This document shows positions 17,190 through 62,824 of a DNA stretch of 64,000 bases, piece by piece. This DNA is from Candidatus Eiseniibacteriota bacterium (GTDB taxonomy: Bacteria; Eisenbacteria; RBG-16-71-46; CAZAMP01), in contig OZ245046.1 of assembly GCA_965224245.1 (NCBI GenBank), positions 5,115,583-5,179,582 of the forward strand, read 5' to 3'. Every line of letters begins with the position of its first letter. The first letter of the stretch is position 1. Both the position numbers and the translations under genes were made by a program. The notes beneath the pieces are model-generated. The model was not told the DNA's origin. It did not search any database and was given only the letters and a program-made list of their open reading frames with translations.

Positions 17190-17808
17190 GCCCGCTCCGC
17201 GAGGCCGTGACCTCCGCCTCGCACCGCCGCCGAAAAGCGCGTCCGTCCCGCCAGAACTCGGTCCGATGCCCGGTACATCAGACACGAAGACGATGCAGGG
17301 ACGACAGAAACCAGTTACCAGACAGGGAGTTACGAGATGGCGATCTACTTGCAGTTCGACGGGATGACCGGAGAGGTCACGGCGGCGGGTCACGAGGGCT
17401 GGATCGAGCTCGAGTCGTTCAGCTGGGGTGTCGGCCGCGGGATCATCATGCAGACCGGAGCCAGCAAGGACCGCGAGGCGTCGGCGCCGTCGCTGTCGGA
17501 GGTGACGGTGACCAAGCAGATGGACGAGACGTCGCCGTACTTCTTCACCGAGGCGTGCGTGGGCAAGGGCAAGACGGCGACGATCCACTTCGTGAAGACC
17601 GGCGAGGAGCTGGAGACGTACATGGAGTACGTGCTGAGCGACGTGATGGTGTCGGGGTACTCGGTGTCGTCGGGCGGGGATCGCCCGGCGGAGTCGATCT
17701 CACTGAGCTTCACGAAGATCGAGACGAAGTACACGCCGTACGACGACGCGCACGCGGCCACGGCGCCGATCCCGGCCGGCTACAACCTGGCCACCGGCAA
17801 GATGGTCT
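17190..17808 (+). repeat. Tandem duplication, copy A (leader plus hcp)
   Basis: Aligns without gaps to 18114..18732 at a 924-bp offset. I saw only a handful of substitutions: three in the leader and one synonymous change in the CDS. Confidence 0.9.
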
Positions 17809-17810
17809 AG
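17337..17810 (+). CDS. hcp: Type VI secretion tube protein Hcp family
   Basis: MAIYLQFDGMTGEVTAAGHEGWIELESFSWGV... then ...LSEVTVTKQMDETSPYFFTEA...ESISLSFTKIETKY, the typical Hcp1 (PF05638-like) pattern. GGGAG lies upstream. Confidence 0.9.
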   Translation: MAIYLQFDGMTGEVTAAGHEGWIELESFSWGVGRGIIMQTGASKDREASAPSLSEVTVTKQMDETSPYFFTEACVGKGKTATIHFVKTGEELETYMEYVLSDVMVSGYSVSSGGDRPAESISLSFTKIETKYTPYDDAHAATAPIPAGYNLATGKMV

Positions 17811-17858
17811 GGCCACTGCTCCTGACGCGCGTCCCTCGGGGCGCGCGCGGCCCCTCTC

Positions 17859-17907
17859 CCGGGGCGGGACCCCGCGACACCTCGCCACACACAAGGTCCC
17901 GCCCCGG
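17859..17907 (+). terminator. Long-loop hairpin after hcp copy A
   Basis: ccggggcgggacc ... ggtcccgccccgg: 13-bp perfect stem with a 23-nt loop. Confidence 0.3.
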
Positions 17908-18113
17908 TCTTCGCTCTCCCCGCCCCGCTTCGGTGACACCGCTCCACCGTCATTGACCTTCCCACGTGCTTCGATCGCCGCCCGACGCCACCGGTGCAAC
18001 GCCACCAGGCCAACGCCACCAGGGCAACGCCATCGCCCGGGTCACGTCCGAGCTCACGACCGAGCCGATCGCGCGCCCGGAGCGGAGGCGGTCCGGATCC
18101 GGACGCACGTCGT

Positions 18114-18732
18114 GCCCGCTCCACGAGGCCGTGACCTCCGCCTCACACCCCCGCCGAAAAGCGCGTCCGTCCCGCCAGAACTCGGTCCGATGCCCGGTAC
18201 ATCAGACACGAAGACGATGCAGGGACGACAGAAACCAGTTACCAGACAGGGAGTTACGAGATGGCGATCTACTTGCAGTTCGACGGGATGACCGGAGAGG
18301 TCACGGCGGCGGGTCACGAGGGCTGGATCGAGCTCGAGTCGTTCAGCTGGGGTGTCGGCCGCGGGATCATCATGCAGACCGGAGCCAGCAAGGACCGCGA
18401 GGCGTCGGCGCCGTCGCTGTCGGAGGTGACGGTGACCAAGCAGATGGACGAGACGTCGCCGTACTTCTTCACCGAGGCGTGCGTGGGCAAGGGCAAGACG
18501 GCGACGATCCACTTCGTGAAGACCGGCGAGGAGCTGGAGACGTACATGGAGTACGTGCTGAGCGACGTGATGGTGTCGGGGTACTCGGTGTCGTCGGGCG
18601 GGGATCGCCCGGCGGAGTCGATCTCACTGAGCTTCACGAAGATCGAGACGAAGTACACGCCGTACGACGACGCACACGCGGCCACGGCGCCGATCCCGGC
18701 CGGCTACAACCTGGCCACCGGCAAGATGGTCT
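18114..18732 (+). repeat. Tandem duplication, copy B (leader plus hcp)
   Basis: See copy A. The stop codon differs (TGA here, TAG in copy A) and similarity ends just before it. Confidence 0.9.
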
Positions 18733-18734
18733 GA
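18261..18734 (+). CDS. hcp: Type VI secretion tube protein Hcp family; protein identical to the copy at 17337
   Basis: The 157-aa translation is identical to the first copy in the supplied track. Confidence 0.9.
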   Translation: MAIYLQFDGMTGEVTAAGHEGWIELESFSWGVGRGIIMQTGASKDREASAPSLSEVTVTKQMDETSPYFFTEACVGKGKTATIHFVKTGEELETYMEYVLSDVMVSGYSVSSGGDRPAESISLSFTKIETKYTPYDDAHAATAPIPAGYNLATGKMV

Positions 18735-18814
18735 CGCCGGAACCCCCGGGCGGCGCGCCACCCCCGGCGCGTCGCTCGCCACGACATCGATCCCACCACA
18801 CCGCCCTCCCCCGA

Positions 18815-18850
18815 GAGCCGGGGTCCGTCCGACGGGACGAGCCCCGGCTC
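18815..18850 (+). terminator. Hairpin after hcp copy B
   Basis: gagccgggg ... ccccggctc: 9-bp outer stem with additional inner pairing. Confidence 0.35.
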
Positions 18851-18977
18851 CCTCCTTGCCCCCGAGGCGAGGTCGCCGGTGCCGAATCCAGCTGTGCGAT
18901 TCCATTCCCCGGGCCCGTTACCTGGATGAAGGCCGAGCAGGGTACGACATCCAACCCCGATGGGAGACGGACGAAAG

Positions 18978-19445
18978 ATGGGCATGTATCTGAAGTACGA
19001 GGGCGTCGAGGGGCCGATCACGGCCAGCGACTACAAGGGCTGGATCGAGATCGACTCGTTCGAGTTCGAGGTGAAGCGCGGTGAGTATGTCATGCTGGGA
19101 AACGGCACCAACAAGGCCACGAGCATCACCGGGGCCAAGATGACCAAGAAGGCCGACGGTGCGACCACGGCCCTGATGCGCGAGGCGTTTCGCGGCGCCG
19201 TGCGCGAGGATGCCCGGGTCCGGTTCGTCACCGGCGGCGAGCTCGTCGATCCGTACCTGGAGTTCGACTTCGATCGGGTAGTGCTGGCGTACTACGCCAT
19301 CGAGACCGTGAACGGCGCCCCGGTCGAGACGTTCGTCATGGAGTACGAACGGCTTCGATCCACCTACACCCCCCGGGACGCGACGGGCAAGCTCGACGCG
19401 CAAATTCCGGCCGGCTACGACCTGAAGGCGGGCACGCCGCTGTGA
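18978..19445 (+). CDS. hcp: Divergent Hcp family paralog
   Basis: MGMYLKYEGVEGPITASDYKGWIEIDSFEFEV aligns position-by-position with the N-terminus of the other two copies. The C-terminal ...YTPRDATGKL..IPAGYDLKAG aligns in parallel. The start was chosen by that alignment; the track ORF starts at 18960. Confidence 0.85.
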   Translation: MGMYLKYEGVEGPITASDYKGWIEIDSFEFEVKRGEYVMLGNGTNKATSITGAKMTKKADGATTALMREAFRGAVREDARVRFVTGGELVDPYLEFDFDRVVLAYYAIETVNGAPVETFVMEYERLRSTYTPRDATGKLDAQIPAGYDLKAGTPL

Positions 19446-49135: not shown

Positions 49136-51076
49136 TCAGCGCGCGGACAGGGCGCGCGTCACGAGCTTCTCGGCCCCTCCGGCGGCCACGAGCTCCTGGG
49201 GTACGCGACCCAGCGCCGCGAACGCGAACTCGCGACCGTCGCAGCGCACGATCGAGTCCCGGAAGTCGACCTCGATGTCGCCGGCCACGATCGTCGGCGC
49301 GTCCGGGGTCGGATGCTCGGCTCGGAGGTGCTCCACCAGCTCGGGGCACTCGAACACCGGGAAGCCGTTGTTGAACGCGTTCCGCTTGTACGTCTCCGAG
49401 AAGCTGATGGCGATCACGCACGGCACCCCGCGGTACGCGAGGGCGGTCGCCGCCTGCTCCCGCGAGGAGCCGGTGCCGAAGTTGCGACCCCCGACGATGA
49501 CGTCACCCCGCCGGTATACCTCGCCGAAGCGGGGATCGTGGTTCTCGAACACCACCTTCGCCATCTCCTCGGGCGTCATGTCGTCCTGGTACGTCCACTT
49601 TCCGGCGAAGATGCCGTCGGTGTTCAGGTTGTCGGCCGGCATGAGGAGCGCGCGGCCCGAGACCGTCTCGGGGAAGCCGTCGAGGATCTCGACCGTGTTC
49701 GCGGCGCGCGGCTTCGGTGCGCTCACCGATGCCGACTTCCGCGCCGGCGTGACGGCGAACCGCGTCGGAGACGTGATGTATCCGGCCACCGCCGACGCCG
49801 CGACGACCGCCGGCGAGCCCAGATACACCTCGGCCTCGCGGCTCCCCATGCGTCCCTTGAAGTTCCGGTTCGTGGCGCTGATGCCGACCTCGCCGTCCTC
49901 GATCGTGCCGGCGCCGAGGCCGATGCAGGGTCCACACCCCGACGGCAACGGGATCGCGCCCGCGTCGGTGAGGCTCTTCCACGTGCCGTCCGCCTCGGCG
50001 ACGGCCTGGATCTCGGCCGACGCGGCGGCGAAGTAGAACTCGACGCCGTCGGCCACGCGCTTGCCGCGAACCACCGCCGCGGCGTCACGCAGATCCTCGA
50101 GACGCGCGTTCACGCAGCTCAGGAGGTAGGCCTTCTGAATGGCGACACGCTTCGCCTCGATCTCCGGGATCGACGTCATCGTCTTGACGTGGTTGGGCCC
50201 CGACACGTGCGGGATCACGGTGGCGAGATCCAGCTCCAGCTCGGCGGCGTACGTCGCGTCGACGTCGGCCTCGAGCCGCTCGGTGTACCACGCATCGACG
50301 TGGTTGCGCGTGTACCGGTCGGTCCGGCCGGCGCGAGCGAACGCATCGGCCCGGCTGCGGAGATAGTGGCCGAGCACGGCGTCGAACGGGAACACGCCGG
50401 CCAGCGCGCCCCACTCGGTGGTCATGTTCGCGATGCTCATGCGCTGGTCCATCGTCAGACCGGCGATGCCGTCGCCGACGAACTCCACGGCGTGGTTCAG
50501 CACCTCGTCCTGATTGAACAGACCGCAGAGCGCGATGATGACGTCTTTGCCCACCACGCCGGGCCGGAGGGTGCCGGTGAGACGGACCCGCGCGATCTTC
50601 GGGACCTGCCACCAGGTCTGTCCCGTGGCCCAGATCGCCGCCGCGTCGGTGCGTACGACCGGTGTTCCCAGTGCGGCCGCGGCGCCGTACAGATTCGAGT
50701 GGGAATCCGAGCCCACGACCAGGCTGCCGGGCGTGACGTATCCCTGCTCGACCATGACCTGATGGCTGATGCCCGTGCCCGCAGGATGGAAGTCGATTCC
50801 GTGAGTCGTCGCGAACGCCTCGATCCTGGCGTACTTGGCCAGGTTCGCCTCGGACCGGTTCTGGATGTCGTGATCGATCGCGAAGACCGGCTGCCGCGGG
50901 TCGTGCACGCGCGTGGCCCCGATCGACTCGAACTTGGGGATGACCGCACCGGTGTTGTCGTGCGTCATCACGTGCTTCGGGCGGATCGTCACGTAGTCCC
51001 CGGCGTGGACGCGCTCACCCTCGGCGAGACCGACGGCGTAGCGGGTGACGATCTTCTCGACGAGGGTCTGACCCAT
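49136..51076 (-). CDS. Aconitase-family hydro-lyase with fused large (LeuC-like) and small (LeuD-like) domains; homoaconitase / 3-isopropylmalate dehydratase-like
   Basis: GDYVTIRPKHVMTHDNT, GSDSHS and SGCGPCIG are the Fe-S cluster Cys motifs. The C-terminus is swivel-domain-like (GRNFGTGSSREQA). Confidence 0.85.
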   Translation of the reverse strand: MGQTLVEKIVTRYAVGLAEGERVHAGDYVTIRPKHVMTHDNTGAVIPKFESIGATRVHDPRQPVFAIDHDIQNRSEANLAKYARIEAFATTHGIDFHPAGTGISHQVMVEQGYVTPGSLVVGSDSHSNLYGAAAALGTPVVRTDAAAIWATGQTWWQVPKIARVRLTGTLRPGVVGKDVIIALCGLFNQDEVLNHAVEFVGDGIAGLTMDQRMSIANMTTEWGALAGVFPFDAVLGHYLRSRADAFARAGRTDRYTRNHVDAWYTERLEADVDATYAAELELDLATVIPHVSGPNHVKTMTSIPEIEAKRVAIQKAYLLSCVNARLEDLRDAAAVVRGKRVADGVEFYFAAASAEIQAVAEADGTWKSLTDAGAIPLPSGCGPCIGLGAGTIEDGEVGISATNRNFKGRMGSREAEVYLGSPAVVAASAVAGYITSPTRFAVTPARKSASVSAPKPRAANTVEILDGFPETVSGRALLMPADNLNTDGIFAGKWTYQDDMTPEEMAKVVFENHDPRFGEVYRRGDVIVGGRNFGTGSSREQAATALAYRGVPCVIAISFSETYKRNAFNNGFPVFECPELVEHLRAEHPTPDAPTIVAGDIEVDFRDSIVRCDGREFAFAALGRVPQELVAAGGAEKLVTRALSAR

Positions 51077-51371
51077 GTGAAAGCGTGCTCCTCTCTGGCC
51101 CCGAGAACTCCTGGATCCACGTGACGGGAATACTACGCTCAGTCACGAGAGCAGGTCACGTCGCGCCGAAGTTGTTGCCGTTTGAGGTCATCCCGACCGC
51201 CATCGTTCTCCGTCAGCCCCGAGTGTGATTCCGATCGTCCCGCCGCGCCTCACGATCGGAATGGGGCGCGGCCTCGCGATCGATCCTCGGCTCGCTTCCG
51301 ATGCCGCGCACGTCGATCAATGTTCGATCAGGGATGGCGCGACCCAGGCGCCTCCGAGCTGGAGTGATCCC

Positions 51372-58619: not shown

Positions 58620-59418
58620 CGCGAATGCCCTCGTCGGACGCCGCGGATGACGGCACCGTCACGTCGGCATCCGGCACCACGGGCCGGAATAGTGGGCTCT
58701 GGTAGAGGCCAGTGCGCCAGAGGCGATACTCGAGGGAGGTTCGCAACACGCCGATCCCATATCGACATGCGCGGCGCAGTCCGATCGAGCTCGCCTCGGG
58801 AAAGTACTTGGTCGGACACGAGATCTCCCCCACGCGGAAGCCGAAGGCGAGGCACTGCGTCAACATCTGATTGTCGAACACGAAGTCGTCGGAGTTGCGC
58901 TCGAGCGGCAGCGTCTCCAGGACGCGGCGCGAGAACGCACGATACCCCGTGTGGAACTCGGAGAGCTTCGACGCCAGGAGGACGTTTTGCACGAGCGTGA
59001 GCGCCCGGTTCGAGACCAGCTTGTACAGCGGCATGCCGCCACTTCTGGCCGTCGCGCCGAGGATGCGAGAGCCGATCACGACGTCGTACACGTCGGAGGC
59101 GACCATCCCCGCCATCGGCGTCACGAGCCGTGGCTCATACTGATAGTCGGGGTGCAGCATCACGACGATGTCGGCACCCAGCCCGAGCGCCTCCCGGTAG
59201 CACGTCTTCTGATTCGCACCGTACCCTCTGTTCTCCGGGTGTACTATCGTATGAATGCCGAGATGGCGAGCGATGGCCGCGGTGTCGTCGTCGCTTCCAT
59301 CGTCTACCAGGAGACAGTGGTCGACGATGTCGTGAGGGATGGCGCGGTGCGTCTTCTCGAGCGTCCGTGCCGCCCGAAAGGCGGGCAAGACGACGACGAT
59401 TCGCTTGGACGCGAGCAT
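58612..59418 (-). CDS. GT2 family glycosyltransferase (polyprenyl-phosphate sugar synthase-like, DPM1/ArnC-type)
   Basis: [33 protein letters not shown] and [10 protein letters not shown] (DxD-type). The start is at the internal ATG at 59418. Confidence 0.85.
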
Positions 59419-59600
59419 TGGTGATCCAGATCCTGGAGACGGGACGTCGCGCGACGGCGGAGGGCCGCGATCTCGAACCCGAGGATGATACCAGAGTACT
59501 TCAACCGGGGGACGGCTTCGGCGAACCGAGGCGCGTCTCGCCGTACGCACGCCCTGCGACGAGCCGACCGCGGAGCACTCGCAGTCGAGGATCGACACCC

Positions 59601-60614
59601 ATGAAGCCACGTTCGAAGAGATCTCACGCGGCGACGCTGGCGGCGTTGGTCGGGCTGGTGGCCGGCTGCGGGTCGCTCACGGGGCGCCACGACGTCGACG
59701 ACGAGCTGGCACGTGCCGGGCCCACGACGATCCGGATCCTGGCCACCGCCCGCACCGATGGCGAGACCGATCCCTGTCCGTGACGGTCGGCGCCCGGACA
59801 GGGCGGGCTGGCCCGGCGGGCCACGCTTCTCGACTCGTTGCGGGCAGAGGATCCGGATCTGCTCGTGGTCGACGCCGGCGACTTCTGCGAGCACGATGGG
59901 CCGCTCGCGGTGGAGAAGAGCGCCTTCATCCTCAGCATGATGCAGGAGATGGGCTACGACGCCGTGGCACTGGGTCCGAGGGAGCTGGCGATCGCCGGCG
60001 ACCTGTCGCACGCGATCGAGGATACCCGTGGCATCGTTCTCTCGAACGCGACCGACGCCATCGATCGATCACTCTCGCCTGAGCGCCACGTCGTCAAGCA
60101 AGTCGGAGGCACGAGAGTGGGCGTCTTTGCGCTCGTGCAGCCCGAGGCCGCCGGCGGCTCGGCCGCCGACGCCCTCCCCGAGCTCGTCGCCGCCGCCGAG
60201 CGCACGTTGCGAGATCTCCGCGCGGAGCGAGCCGGCTTCACGGTGCTGCTCTGTCAGCTCGATGCCGTGGTGACGGACACGCTTCTCAGACGGATCACAG
60301 GCGTGGACCTGGTCGTGATGGGAGACACGCCCGTTGCACGCATTCGGGACCGTATCGAGAGCACCGTGCCCCTGGTCGTGTACCCGGGAGGAAAGGGACG
60401 CTCAGTGACGATCGTCGACGTGAGCGTCGACGCGTCCGGTACCGTCGTCGACGGCCAGGCCCGGATGGTCCTCCTGAACGCGCACATTCCGCTGGATCCG
60501 CGAGTCCACGCGCGGGTCTCGGTCATGAACGCCCGCATCCGGGAGGAGCGGATGCGGATCTTCCGGGAGAGCCGGGGGCTGGGCGACGGTAGAGAGGTGT
60601 CGGACGATCCGTGA
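59601..60614 (+). CDS. Lipoprotein resembling a metallophosphoesterase/5'-nucleotidase N-terminal domain, interrupted by one in-frame TGA at 59781..59783
   Basis: Lipobox LVAGCGS. The track ORFs 59130..59783 and 59838..60614 are in the same frame, and the 54 nt between them keep G/C-ending codons ([20 protein letters not shown]). ...LLVVDAGDF... resembles the GD motif. Other metal-ligand motifs look degenerate. Confidence 0.55.
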
Positions 60615-60700
60615 GTCCGGCGACCCGCGAGGGCTCGTGGGTCGGTGGCGGGACCGCCTCGATCCGTCTGATGACGGATACCGGTCGGCAGAGGGCGTCC

Positions 60701-60728
60701 CTCCGGGTGCGGGGTCTCGCACCCGGAG
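60701..60728. terminator. Hairpin between the convergent genes at 59601(+) and pckA(-)
   Basis: ctccgggtgc / ggggtctc / gcacccggag: 10-bp perfect stem. Confidence 0.4.
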
Positions 60729-60753
60729 GTGACGTGACGCGAGGATCAGCTCG

Positions 60754-62391
60754 TCACTTGCCCGGGCACTGGCTGACCACGCTGGAGTCGATGCCCTTGT
60801 TGCCGTAGTTCTTGTCGAAGTACGCCGAGAACTCCGCCGCGAGCTTCTTCGCTCGCGCATCGTACGCGGACGGGTCCTTCCACGTGTTCCGCGGCGCCAG
60901 CATCGTCGAGTCGATACCCGGCACCTCGTTGGGAACGTTCACGTGGAAGAGCGGATCCTCGGTGTACGAGACCTTCTCCAGCGTGCCGTCGAGAGCCGCA
61001 TGGACGAGGCTCCGCGTCAGGTTGATGTCCATCCGTGAGCCCTCACCGTACGGGCCGCCGCTCCAGCCGGTGTTGACCAGGTACACGTTGGTCTTGTGCT
61101 CCTTCATCTTCCTGCCCAGGAGCGATGCGTAGTCGTCGGGGTTGCGCGGCATGAACGGCGCGCCGAAGAAACGCGAGAACGCGGTCTGCGGCTCGGTGAC
61201 GCCGCGTTCGGTGCCCGCCAGCTTCGAGGTGTAGCCCATCATGAACCACAGCATTGCCTGCGCGGCGTTCAGCTTGGCCACCGGCGGCAGCACGCCGTTC
61301 GCGTCGGCGGTCAGGAAGATGATGTTCGACGGATGCGTCGAGATCGGCGGCGTCTTGATGTGCTCGAGGAAGCTCAGCGGATACGACACGCGTGAGTTCT
61401 CGGTCAGGCGGCCGTCGTCGACGTCGAAGCTGCCGTCGGCCAGCATGAAGCAGTTCTCGATCAGCGCGCCGTGGGCGAGAGGGTCGGACTTGTGGAACGT
61501 GGCGTTCCAGATCTCCGGCTCCTTGTCTTGACGCAGGTTGATCAGCTTCGCGTAGCAGCCGTTCTCGAAGTTCGCGATGCCGTCGTCGCTCCAGCCGTGC
61601 TCGTCGTCGCCGAGGAGCAAGCGCCGCGGATCGGCCGAGAGCGTCGTCTTGCCGGTGCCCGAGAGGCCGAGGAAGAGTGCACAGTCGCCCGCTTGACCCT
61701 CGTTCGCCGAGCAGTGGAGCGGCAGAATGCCCTGGTCGGGAAGCAGGAAGTTCATGACCGTGAACATCAGCTTCTTGACGCTGCCGGCGTACGCGTTGCC
61801 GTACACGAGCCCCAGACGCCGATCGAAGTCCATCGCGATCGCCATGTTGGAGCGAAGCCGTCCCTGGTACGCGTCGAAGTTGATGCGGTCGTACGGGAGC
61901 ACCAGGAGCTTGAAGCCTCGGCTCGCGTAGACGCTGGTCTCGATCTTGTCCGGGATGGGACGGAACATGTTGTCGGTGAAGAGCATCGTGGCCGCCCGAT
62001 CGGAGACCGTGCGGATCGGGAGCGCGTACGCAGGATCGGCGCCGACGGTGCGGTCGGTGTAGTACACCGTCTTCTTCATGGCCAGGATCTTCAGCGCGTC
62101 GTTCCAGAGGTCGTCGAACGTCGACGGCTCCATCGGAATGCAGTTGGGAGAGTCCCAGTCGATCTTGCCTTCGCTCTCGGAGTGGCGAACGATGAACGTG
62201 TCCTTCGGGCTGCGGCCCGTGCAATCAGACGGCGTGAACGTCGCGATCGCACCTCCGGCCGACGCGAACCCTTCCTTGTTGTCCAGGACGTGGCGGATCA
62301 GGTTGCGCCGGGGGAGGTTCGCGTTGACCCCGATGTGGTGTTCGAGCACGCGATCGAGGCCCTTGCCGAGTGTGTCTACCGTGTGTGACAT
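60754..62391 (-). CDS. pckA: Phosphoenolpyruvate carboxykinase (ATP)
   Basis: TGRSPKDTFIV, the kinase-1a loop GLSGTGKTTLS, GDDEHGWS and NFENGCYAK. Length is about 545 aa from the ATG at 62391. Confidence 0.95.
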   Translation of the reverse strand: MSHTVDTLGKGLDRVLEHHIGVNANLPRRNLIRHVLDNKEGFASAGGAIATFTPSDCTGRSPKDTFIVRHSESEGKIDWDSPNCIPMEPSTFDDLWNDALKILAMKKTVYYTDRTVGADPAYALPIRTVSDRAATMLFTDNMFRPIPDKIETSVYASRGFKLLVLPYDRINFDAYQGRLRSNMAIAMDFDRRLGLVYGNAYAGSVKKLMFTVMNFLLPDQGILPLHCSANEGQAGDCALFLGLSGTGKTTLSADPRRLLLGDDEHGWSDDGIANFENGCYAKLINLRQDKEPEIWNATFHKSDPLAHGALIENCFMLADGSFDVDDGRLTENSRVSYPLSFLEHIKTPPISTHPSNIIFLTADANGVLPPVAKLNAAQAMLWFMMGYTSKLAGTERGVTEPQTAFSRFFGAPFMPRNPDDYASLLGRKMKEHKTNVYLVNTGWSGGPYGEGSRMDINLTRSLVHAALDGTLEKVSYTEDPLFHVNVPNEVPGIDSTMLAPRNTWKDPSAYDARAKKLAAEFSAYFDKNYGNKGIDSSVVSQCPGK

Positions 62392-62824
62392 CGAAGTATC
62401 CTCTCGCAGGCTCCAACGGCGCGCGAGACGTTCGTGCGCGGGGAGCTGACTTGAATGCGCTCGAGTCCCAGAAAGCCGAAGAGCATAGGCGAGCGCTCCG
62501 TCGCGCGACAACTTGCGGAAACCCGAAACGGAATATTCGCCTGTCGCTATGTCAGGGCGGAGTCCGCGAGCGCCATCGGACCCATCGCACCGATCTCGAC
62601 TCACGTTCACATCCGGCTCCGACGGCCATGCCGTCCGGGTCACGGTCGAGAGGTGCCCGACGTCCCGGCGCGCGCGGGCGCGCTCACGTGGGGGTCTCGC
62701 GGCCCTCGGCCGCGGGCGGCGATCGGCCGGACAGCGGGCGCGCCCGTGGGCGGCACGACCCGCGCGGGCTCGCGTGGTAGGATCTGTCGCCACCGATCCC
62801 GCACACGTGACCAGGAGCCCCGCC

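Follow-up and report, generated by a model that had tools for sequence, protein, structure and literature searches.

Selenoproteins built on a UshA-like scaffold have been on record since 2008, when a "COG0737 UshA-like, CxU" family was listed by Zhang & Gladyshev (PMC2398784), U being selenocysteine (Sec). The family reappears in a 2022 review (PMC9312934) and in a 2026 review, the latter assigning the NCBIfam profile NF041198 to the CxU form and NF049981 to the CxxU form (PMC13188914). We describe here a gene of this type at 59601-60614 in a 64,000-nucleotide stretch of contig OZ245046.1 (the window, by which we mean that whole stretch), which reads in one frame except for a TGA at 59781-59783. 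Judged from sequence comparison, this TGA is quite likely a genuine selenocysteine codon, and the gene a divergent form, without haem, of the known UshA-like CxU family. We read it so because the TGA falls on the codon position occupied by Sec at 40 related sites, because the nearest relative (L001) is a Sec form, because the covarying stem of the family, which resembles a Sec insertion sequence (SECIS), is present in perfect form, and because neither frame nor family motifs are disturbed on either side of the TGA. From this we infer Sec insertion in the source organism, lipoprotein localisation and redox chemistry. An earlier reading of the same DNA from its letters alone (the sequence-only reading) had proposed a selenocysteine candidate here; the proposal is supported, and the family proved to be already catalogued as Cys/Sec (NF041198). 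The features of the gene are as follows.

59587-59591, + strand: Shine-Dalgarno-like GAGGA, 9 nt 5' of ATG 59601, read from the sequence

59601-60614, + strand: coding sequence (CDS) of the UshA-like (seleno)protein, 337 codons counting UGA-61, plus the stop at 60612-60614; based on translation, GC content of third codon positions (GC3) and an NF041198 match to residues 40-299

59601-59669, + strand: predicted lipoprotein signal peptide, with lipobox L-V-A-G-C and the Cys23 codon at 59667-59669, read from the sequence

59721-60500, + strand: 5'-nucleotidase-type N-terminal (calcineurin-like) domain with degenerate metal and catalytic motifs; based on PDB matches, a motif table and a homologue model

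59772-59783, + strand: P-C-P-U motif (Pro58, Cys59, Pro60, Sec61), in which TGA 59781-59783 is the proposed selenocysteine codon

59791-59805, + strand: hairpin 1, CGCCC GGACA GGGCG, starting 7 nt after the TGA; -10.4 kcal/mol

59802-59825, + strand: codons of G-G-L-A-R-R-A-T, the start of helix alpha-1, with G68, G69, R72, R73, A74 and T75 invariant or nearly so; these codons also encode the SECIS-like stem

59806-59827, + strand: SECIS-like hairpin 2, with a 6-bp core (59809-59814 with 59818-59823) and an apical loop GGC (59815-59817); -13.3 kcal/mol

A single frame runs from ATG 59601 to the stop at 60612-60614, and TGA 59781-59783, codon 61, is its sole interruption. The sequence-only reading had reported two open reading frames (ORFs), 59130..59783 and 59838..60614, lying in the same frame with nothing but this TGA dividing them; the coordinates and the peptide quoted with them were all verified. 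The coding character that was said to cross the gap is seen as a GC3 of 0.70-0.93 throughout 59601-60614, on both sides of the TGA, and the upstream lipoprotein signal LVAGC of that reading is the lipobox listed above. Relatives likewise start with lipobox-type signals (LALFGC in L003, ALIEGC in L016 and LALVGC in L086). Both strands of the window were scanned for TGA triplets with 40 stop-free, high-GC3 codons on either side. This gave 11 sites, with a genuine protein only at 59781 and the other 10 resembling antisense frames of other genes; no further in-frame-TGA selenoprotein candidate was found in the window by this both-strand scan. The UshA-like gene is divergent from a minus-strand glycosyltransferase gene whose coding ends near 59424, and its own promoter is therefore expected in 59425-59600, where no sigma-70 consensus was found.

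Truncation by gene calling is the usual fate of selenoprotein genes, and the public gene call on the same 6,451,234-bp contig is a 249-aa fragment only, starting at GTG 59865 (P0001; window 59865-60614). The source annotation splits the UshA-like selenoprotein gene wrongly, and restoring it has annotation value, the public call having dropped both the signal peptide and the active-site motif. The 249-aa product might also be taken at face value, as the second of two independent genes: a 60-codon lipopeptide ORF, then a separate cytoplasmic protein starting from TTG 59838 or GTG 59865. However, homology to single-chain relatives spans the TGA, taking in strand beta-1, the P-C-x-U/C motif and GGLARRAT; use of an internal start would cost the protein its signal peptide along with strand beta-1 and helix alpha-1, in a domain that is exported in relatives; and no Shine-Dalgarno-like sequence was noted 5' of either start. 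We regard two genes as hardly credible.

The evidence from the TGA column comes from relatives collected by scans of genomes (one per species) and metagenomes, which gave 160 loci and, with the window, 161 sources. These hold 51 motif sites including that of the window: 41 have TGA (40 PCG-TGA plus the PCP-TGA of the window) and 10 have TGC or TGT. The layout in relatives is P-C-G-TGA-(4-5 codons)-GGLARRAT, and in the window P-C-P-TGA-(6 codons)-GGLARRAT. A motif cited in the sequence-only reading, ..EPCGC.....GGLxRR.., belongs to a family that does exist, with Cys forms of the type DPCGC/PCSC/PCAC...GG[LIV]ARRAT: the homologues P0002, P0003 and P0012 read DPCGC, PCSC and PCAC, then GG[LIV][AS]RRAT. 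In the alignment with Cys homologues the invariant positions are P58, C59, the TGA column, P65, G68, G69 and R72-T75, and the TGA of the window, which that reading had set on the second Cys, aligns with the invariant second Cys of P-C-x-C. The window thus has the family motif, P-C-x-U/C in the beta-1/alpha-1 loop followed by GG[LI]ARRAT, with TGA at the Sec/Cys column. It also has what is generally asked of a selenoprotein gene, namely an in-frame UGA where homologues have Cys, together with TGA-bearing homologues in other organisms.

One base separates Sec from Cys forms, and the TGA could in principle have arisen in sequencing or assembly, or mark a strain variant present in a minority, with TGC or TGT as the true codon and an ordinary Cys-form UshA-like lipoprotein as the product. 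Yet TGA is the majority state of the column (41/51 sites, the window included), the stem associated with Sec is present, and the public gene call is cut short at this point too, which shows the TGA to be in the deposited sequence. We consider the chance of such an error or variant to be very small.

Downstream of the TGA lie the two hairpins noted by the sequence-only reading, and the positions it gave (7 nt and 25 nt after the TGA) were both verified. It had offered either as a SECIS-like element. The second stands up as a family-conserved, covarying stem, and the first does not, being lineage-specific and not conserved. The core of hairpin 2 (UGGCCC-GGC-GGGCCA, 59809-59823) starts 25 nt after the TGA, which puts the loop 31 nt from the UGA, and is formed by the codons of L-A-R-R-A-T, which fold into a 6-bp stem with a 3-nt loop. 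All six pairs are made in the window (6/6), and among distinct Sec forms 29/34 have the stem fully paired, vs 2/10 Cys forms (Fisher p = 2.5e-4). Only two of its pairs join synonymous third positions, and both covary, with GC, CG and GU at one and CG and UA at the other; the covariation score was reached by 0/500 shuffles and by no slid register. A covariance model built from 33 other Sec forms had one match in the 64-kb window, at 59800-59828 (33 bits, E 1e-6), with the runner-up at 11.5 bits.

The published constraints for bacterial SECIS (bSECIS) elements are a stem of 4-16 bp, a loop of 3-9 nt with G first, a distance of 16-37 nt from the UGA and an energy of -7.5 kcal/mol or lower (PMC13188914). 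Hairpin 2 lies within them, with a stem of 6-9 bp, a GGC loop, a distance of 31 nt and -13.3 kcal/mol. It shares with the bSECIS consensus (bSECISearch; PMC13188914) the place inside the CDS 3' of the UGA, a 6-bp stem (9-bp with a bulge) and a 3-nt loop starting GG; it differs in its family-specific sequence, in a spacing near the upper limit of 16-37 nt and in the extra hairpin between UGA and stem. A generic bSECIS-like hairpin follows about 50% of the TGA triplets in this window of 69% GC, which bears out the caution of the sequence-only reading that hairpins are common in GC-rich DNA. The bSECIS criterion alone is therefore weak, and the hairpins count only through the family comparison. 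Across the window, Rfam gave no match at gathering thresholds, and around the site no SECIS family at E up to 10.

Folding energy was rejected as SECIS evidence. The 50 nt from the UGA (59781-59830) fold no better than shuffles (z = -0.12) and other folds gave z of -0.1 to -2.1; these are unremarkable, the one exception being a 76-nt fold extended into upstream sequence (z = -3.0), and hairpins of a generic kind abound here. A SECIS of two hairpins was also considered, with hairpin 1 equated to the CCCCCC-AAA-GGGGGG stem of Anaerolineae-type relatives, and was rejected as a family feature: the counterpart of hairpin 1 in relatives is only 63-77% paired, without convincing covariation. The loop of hairpin 1 begins 12 nt after the UGA, outside the bSECIS range of 16-37 nt (PMC13188914). 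Hairpin 1 is probably an incidental by-product of the lineage-specific 6-codon linker, or auxiliary.

Among NCBIfam profiles, the window protein is matched best by NF041198, "UshA-like (seleno)protein, PCGU" (81.4 bits, E 5.1e-23, profile positions 20-290 of 519), and next by NF049981, "UshA-like (seleno)protein family 2" (59 bits, E 4.8e-16, profile positions 2-224 of 262). Weaker matches are to SoxB and to multifunctional 5'-nucleotidases, and Pfam PF00149 gives 13 bits, under its cut-off of 21.5. Relatives range widely on NF041198, at 284 bits for L009, 215 for L056, 213 for L001, 167 for L003 and 116 for P0002; as they too can score low, the curated model covers just the core of a wider homologous group. 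The nearest relative, L001, is 36% identical over 298 residues (E 4e-48), and all of the top 16 BLAST relatives are Sec forms (16/16). In a neighbour-joining tree, which has no support values, the PCxU/C proteins make one group separate from canonical 5'-nucleotidases, with the window protein sister to L001 and the Cys forms P0002, L122 and L094 in an adjoining clade. Tandem UshA-like paralogues occur in L094 (sites 863 and 1957), one a Cys form (TGC) and then one a Sec form (TGA), and in L010 (sites 5002 and 6061), where both are Sec forms. Duplication seems often to have been followed by a Sec/Cys switch in the UshA-like family.

The fold is that of a 5'-nucleotidase N-domain. A PDB sequence search with the window protein returned only 5'-nucleotidases (CD73, snake-venom and Thermus enzymes) at E 1e-8 to 1e-9. 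For structure we took the AlphaFold model of the Cys homologue P0002 as a stand-in for the window protein (pLDDT, the predicted local distance difference test score, 81). It has a template-modelling score (TM) of about 0.7 to the N-domain of CD73 and UshA and places the C-x-C in the predicted loop between strand beta-1 and helix alpha-1. In snake-venom 5'-nucleotidase 5h7w, which is eukaryotic and of CD73 type, two Cys lie in the same beta-1/alpha-1 loop (DSGKCTGEDCYGGVARRAT, aligned with window 59769-59825), and this loop is therefore a recurrent site for a Cys pair in the superfamily. The Cys pair of that loop forms a disulfide in CD73.

What the window protein lacks is the catalytic apparatus. 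Where canonical enzymes have HTNDxHG, GNHEF, SHxG and GGHSHx it reads ATARTDG, GPREL, CQLD and MGDTPV, and DAGD alone is retained. This agrees with the degenerate metal-ligand motifs described by the sequence-only reading. The second His of DxH and the Asn-His of GNHE are gone in every PCxU/C protein, and in the window protein, L001, L016 and L056 essentially all phosphoesterase motifs but DAGD are gone. Nor does the window protein have a Pfam match to the C-terminal nucleotide-binding domain PF02872. The set of features expected of an active 5'-nucleotidase or metallophosphoesterase (DxH, GD, GNHE, H and GHxH, plus the C-terminal domain) is therefore far from complete, and the window protein is not a phosphoesterase. 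Compared with UshA and CD73 (PDB 1ush, 4h1s, 2z1a), it keeps the N-domain fold, GG[VI]AR in helix alpha-1 and DAGD, and differs in having neither the DxH, GNHE, SH and GHxH set nor PF02872, and in the Cys-x-Sec inserted in the beta-1/alpha-1 loop. SoxB (TIGR04486) is likewise a periplasmic member of the 5'-nucleotidase superfamily and acts on sulfur compounds. Similarity to it is weak but significant (40 bits, E 1.5e-10 for the window protein, and up to 116 bits for relatives), with the cut-off of 550 not reached and the metal ligands of the dimanganese site of SoxB missing in the window protein.

In about 20 relatives, including L001, L009, L016, L058, L059 and L007, the protein continues into a C-terminal domain that has four CXXCH haem motifs. 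Tetrahaem fusions were also seen in L015, L036, L042, L021, L122 and L154, and the tetrahaem members from Pirellulaceae (L007, L015, L036 and L042) are all Cys forms. The window protein stops at residue 337 without any CXXCH, hence without a counterpart of the multihaem domain of NF041198 (positions ~360-519); the tetrahaem domain is also missing in about 30 of 50 related proteins. The fusions of relatives point to electron transfer as a likely theme of the family. The non-hydrolytic, possibly redox role suggested by the sequence-only reading fits this, together with the family-wide loss of catalytic residues.

On the Sec reading, a ribosome arriving at UGA-61 would meet the hairpin in the L-A-R-R-A-T codons (59809-59823), which would recruit SelB with Sec-tRNA(Sec), and selenocysteine would be inserted at UGA-61 in place of termination. 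The product would then be exported, lipidated at Cys23 and anchored in the membrane. Its working site would be Cys59-Pro60-Sec61 in the beta-1/alpha-1 loop, adjoining the former metal site, where Cys59 and Sec61 may serve as a thiol/selenol (selenenylsulfide) redox centre or a centre of chalcogen transfer. The haem-less window protein would require a separate partner.

Several results weigh against the Sec reading or against membership in the described families. The score on NF041198 (81.4 bits) does not reach the curated equivalog cut-off of 275 bits, and that on NF049981 (59 bits) does not reach 140 bits, the motif there being CxxU instead of CxU; the window protein is by these scores a divergent outlier, below the cut-offs of both NCBIfam UshA-like families. 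Its motif is PCPU, differing from the family PCGU. The UGA-to-loop distance of 31 nt is above that of every relative (25 or 28 nt), because of the 6-codon linker. Given the codon usage of the genome, a 6/6 stem in L-A-R-R-A-T codons has a chance of about 0.20, which is also the rate among Cys forms (2/10), and with a chance stem at about 20% the hairpin alone gives only a likelihood ratio of about 4-fold. No close orthologue was found in the collections searched, the best match having 36% identity. Neither selA, selB, selD nor tRNA-Sec was found within the 64-kb window (0 tRNAs by ARAGORN; NCBIfam scans of ~40 ORFs). The redox mechanism, which is only a proposal, is a further weak point.

A rival reading, whose nonsense variant the sequence-only reading had also raised, has the gene as a relic or pseudogene, either because a lineage that inherited a Sec form later lost Sec decoding or through a TGC-to-TGA nonsense mutation in a Cys form, with translation stopping after 60 residues and no functional domain exported. 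The isolation of this fast-evolving outlier (36% identity or less to anything) would suit a relic, as would the frequent Sec/Cys switches seen from P0002, L122 and L094 in the neighbouring clade; the stem would arise by chance about one time in five, and long stop-free frames are common in DNA of 69% GC. But a random nonsense mutation would need to strike the single codon in 337 that is the Sec column of the family. The closest relative has Sec here, and the SECIS-like stem is fully paired and bears the consensus GGC loop. Moreover, the 276 codons after the TGA contain no further stop or frameshift, and both sides retain GC3 and family motifs. A relic is on balance improbable, and we prefer the reading as a functional Sec codon.

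Side by side with the NF041198 family, the gene has in common the 5'-nucleotidase-type N-domain, P-C-x-U followed by GGLARRAT, a SECIS-like stem in the LARRAT codons, an N-terminal lipoprotein or secretion signal and the loss of the GNHE catalytic residues. The differences are PCPU in place of PCGU, a linker of 6 instead of 4-5 codons, a spacing of 31 instead of 25-28 nt, and the missing tetrahaem (4x CXXCH) domain; of the five phosphoesterase motifs, only DAGD is not degenerate in the window protein. NF049981 family 2 (PMC13188914) resembles it as a short, single-domain UshA-like selenoprotein, with CxxU where the window has CxU. We entertain, with some doubt, the further idea that the window gene founds a third, uncurated subfamily of UshA-like selenoproteins: single-domain, without haem, with all dimetal ligands lost, with P-C-P-U and with a longer UGA-to-SECIS spacing plus an extra hairpin. 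Such a subfamily would belong to a deep and little-sampled lineage, and might act as a free-standing periplasmic lipoprotein, a selenol/thiol redox or chalcogen carrier with a separate electron partner.

The family having been known since 2008, the window gene is most likely a mis-split gene of known kind, with no new phenomenon. With it the UshA-like CxU family gains a haem-less form that diverges strongly from the rest, and probably reaches into a lineage that has been little sampled. The family SECIS also comes out clearly from the comparison, as a stem in the L-A-R-R-A-T codons in which compensatory synonymous changes occur and by which Sec forms can be told from Cys forms. The family emerges as a widespread pseudo-phosphoesterase scaffold with Cys-x-Sec, often fused to a tetrahaem domain, and a minimal single-domain member could suit the study of its role.

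The neighbours in the window encode a polyprenyl-phosphate glycosyltransferase, a flippase-like protein, a GT39-like membrane protein, phosphoenolpyruvate carboxykinase (PEPCK; pckA) and an M20 dipeptidase, none of them related to selenium or sulfur. The next gene 3' of the UshA-like gene is pckA, which is convergent with it, and one further feature lies between the two.

60700-60729, no strand: perfect 12-bp inverted repeat (CCTCCGGGTGCG ... CGCACCCGGAGG, 6-nt loop) between the convergent UshA-like and pckA genes

The repeat is possibly a bidirectional terminator; it has no T-run, so the terminator scan makes no call. Across 46 loci with UshA-like members no conserved neighbour family was found, no locus of a relative showed synteny with the window flanks, and on the contig of the best PEPCK relative no UshA-like gene stands beside pckA. 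In a collection of 5.8 billion clusters no protein is more than 72% identical to the PEPCK (60757-62394, - strand), and the matches to this PEPCK come from Deferrisomatales, Acidobacteriota, Eisenbacteria and Anaerolineae alike. The source genome, of 6.45 Mb and 69% GC, seems to belong to a deep lineage that has been little sampled.

Elsewhere in the window, 17190-17810 and 18114-18734 are tandem copies of an ORF of ~200 aa, 99% identical over the first 300 nt and spaced at 924 nt, with a third, diverged copy of similar C-terminal peptide at 18930-19445; none of these tandem ORFs (17190-19445) has an NCBIfam match at E 1e-25. Finally, a fused large-plus-small-subunit homoaconitase is encoded at 49139-51142 on the minus strand (TIGR00139, 766 bits vs a cut-off of 530), which suggests lysine synthesis via the alpha-aminoadipate route.

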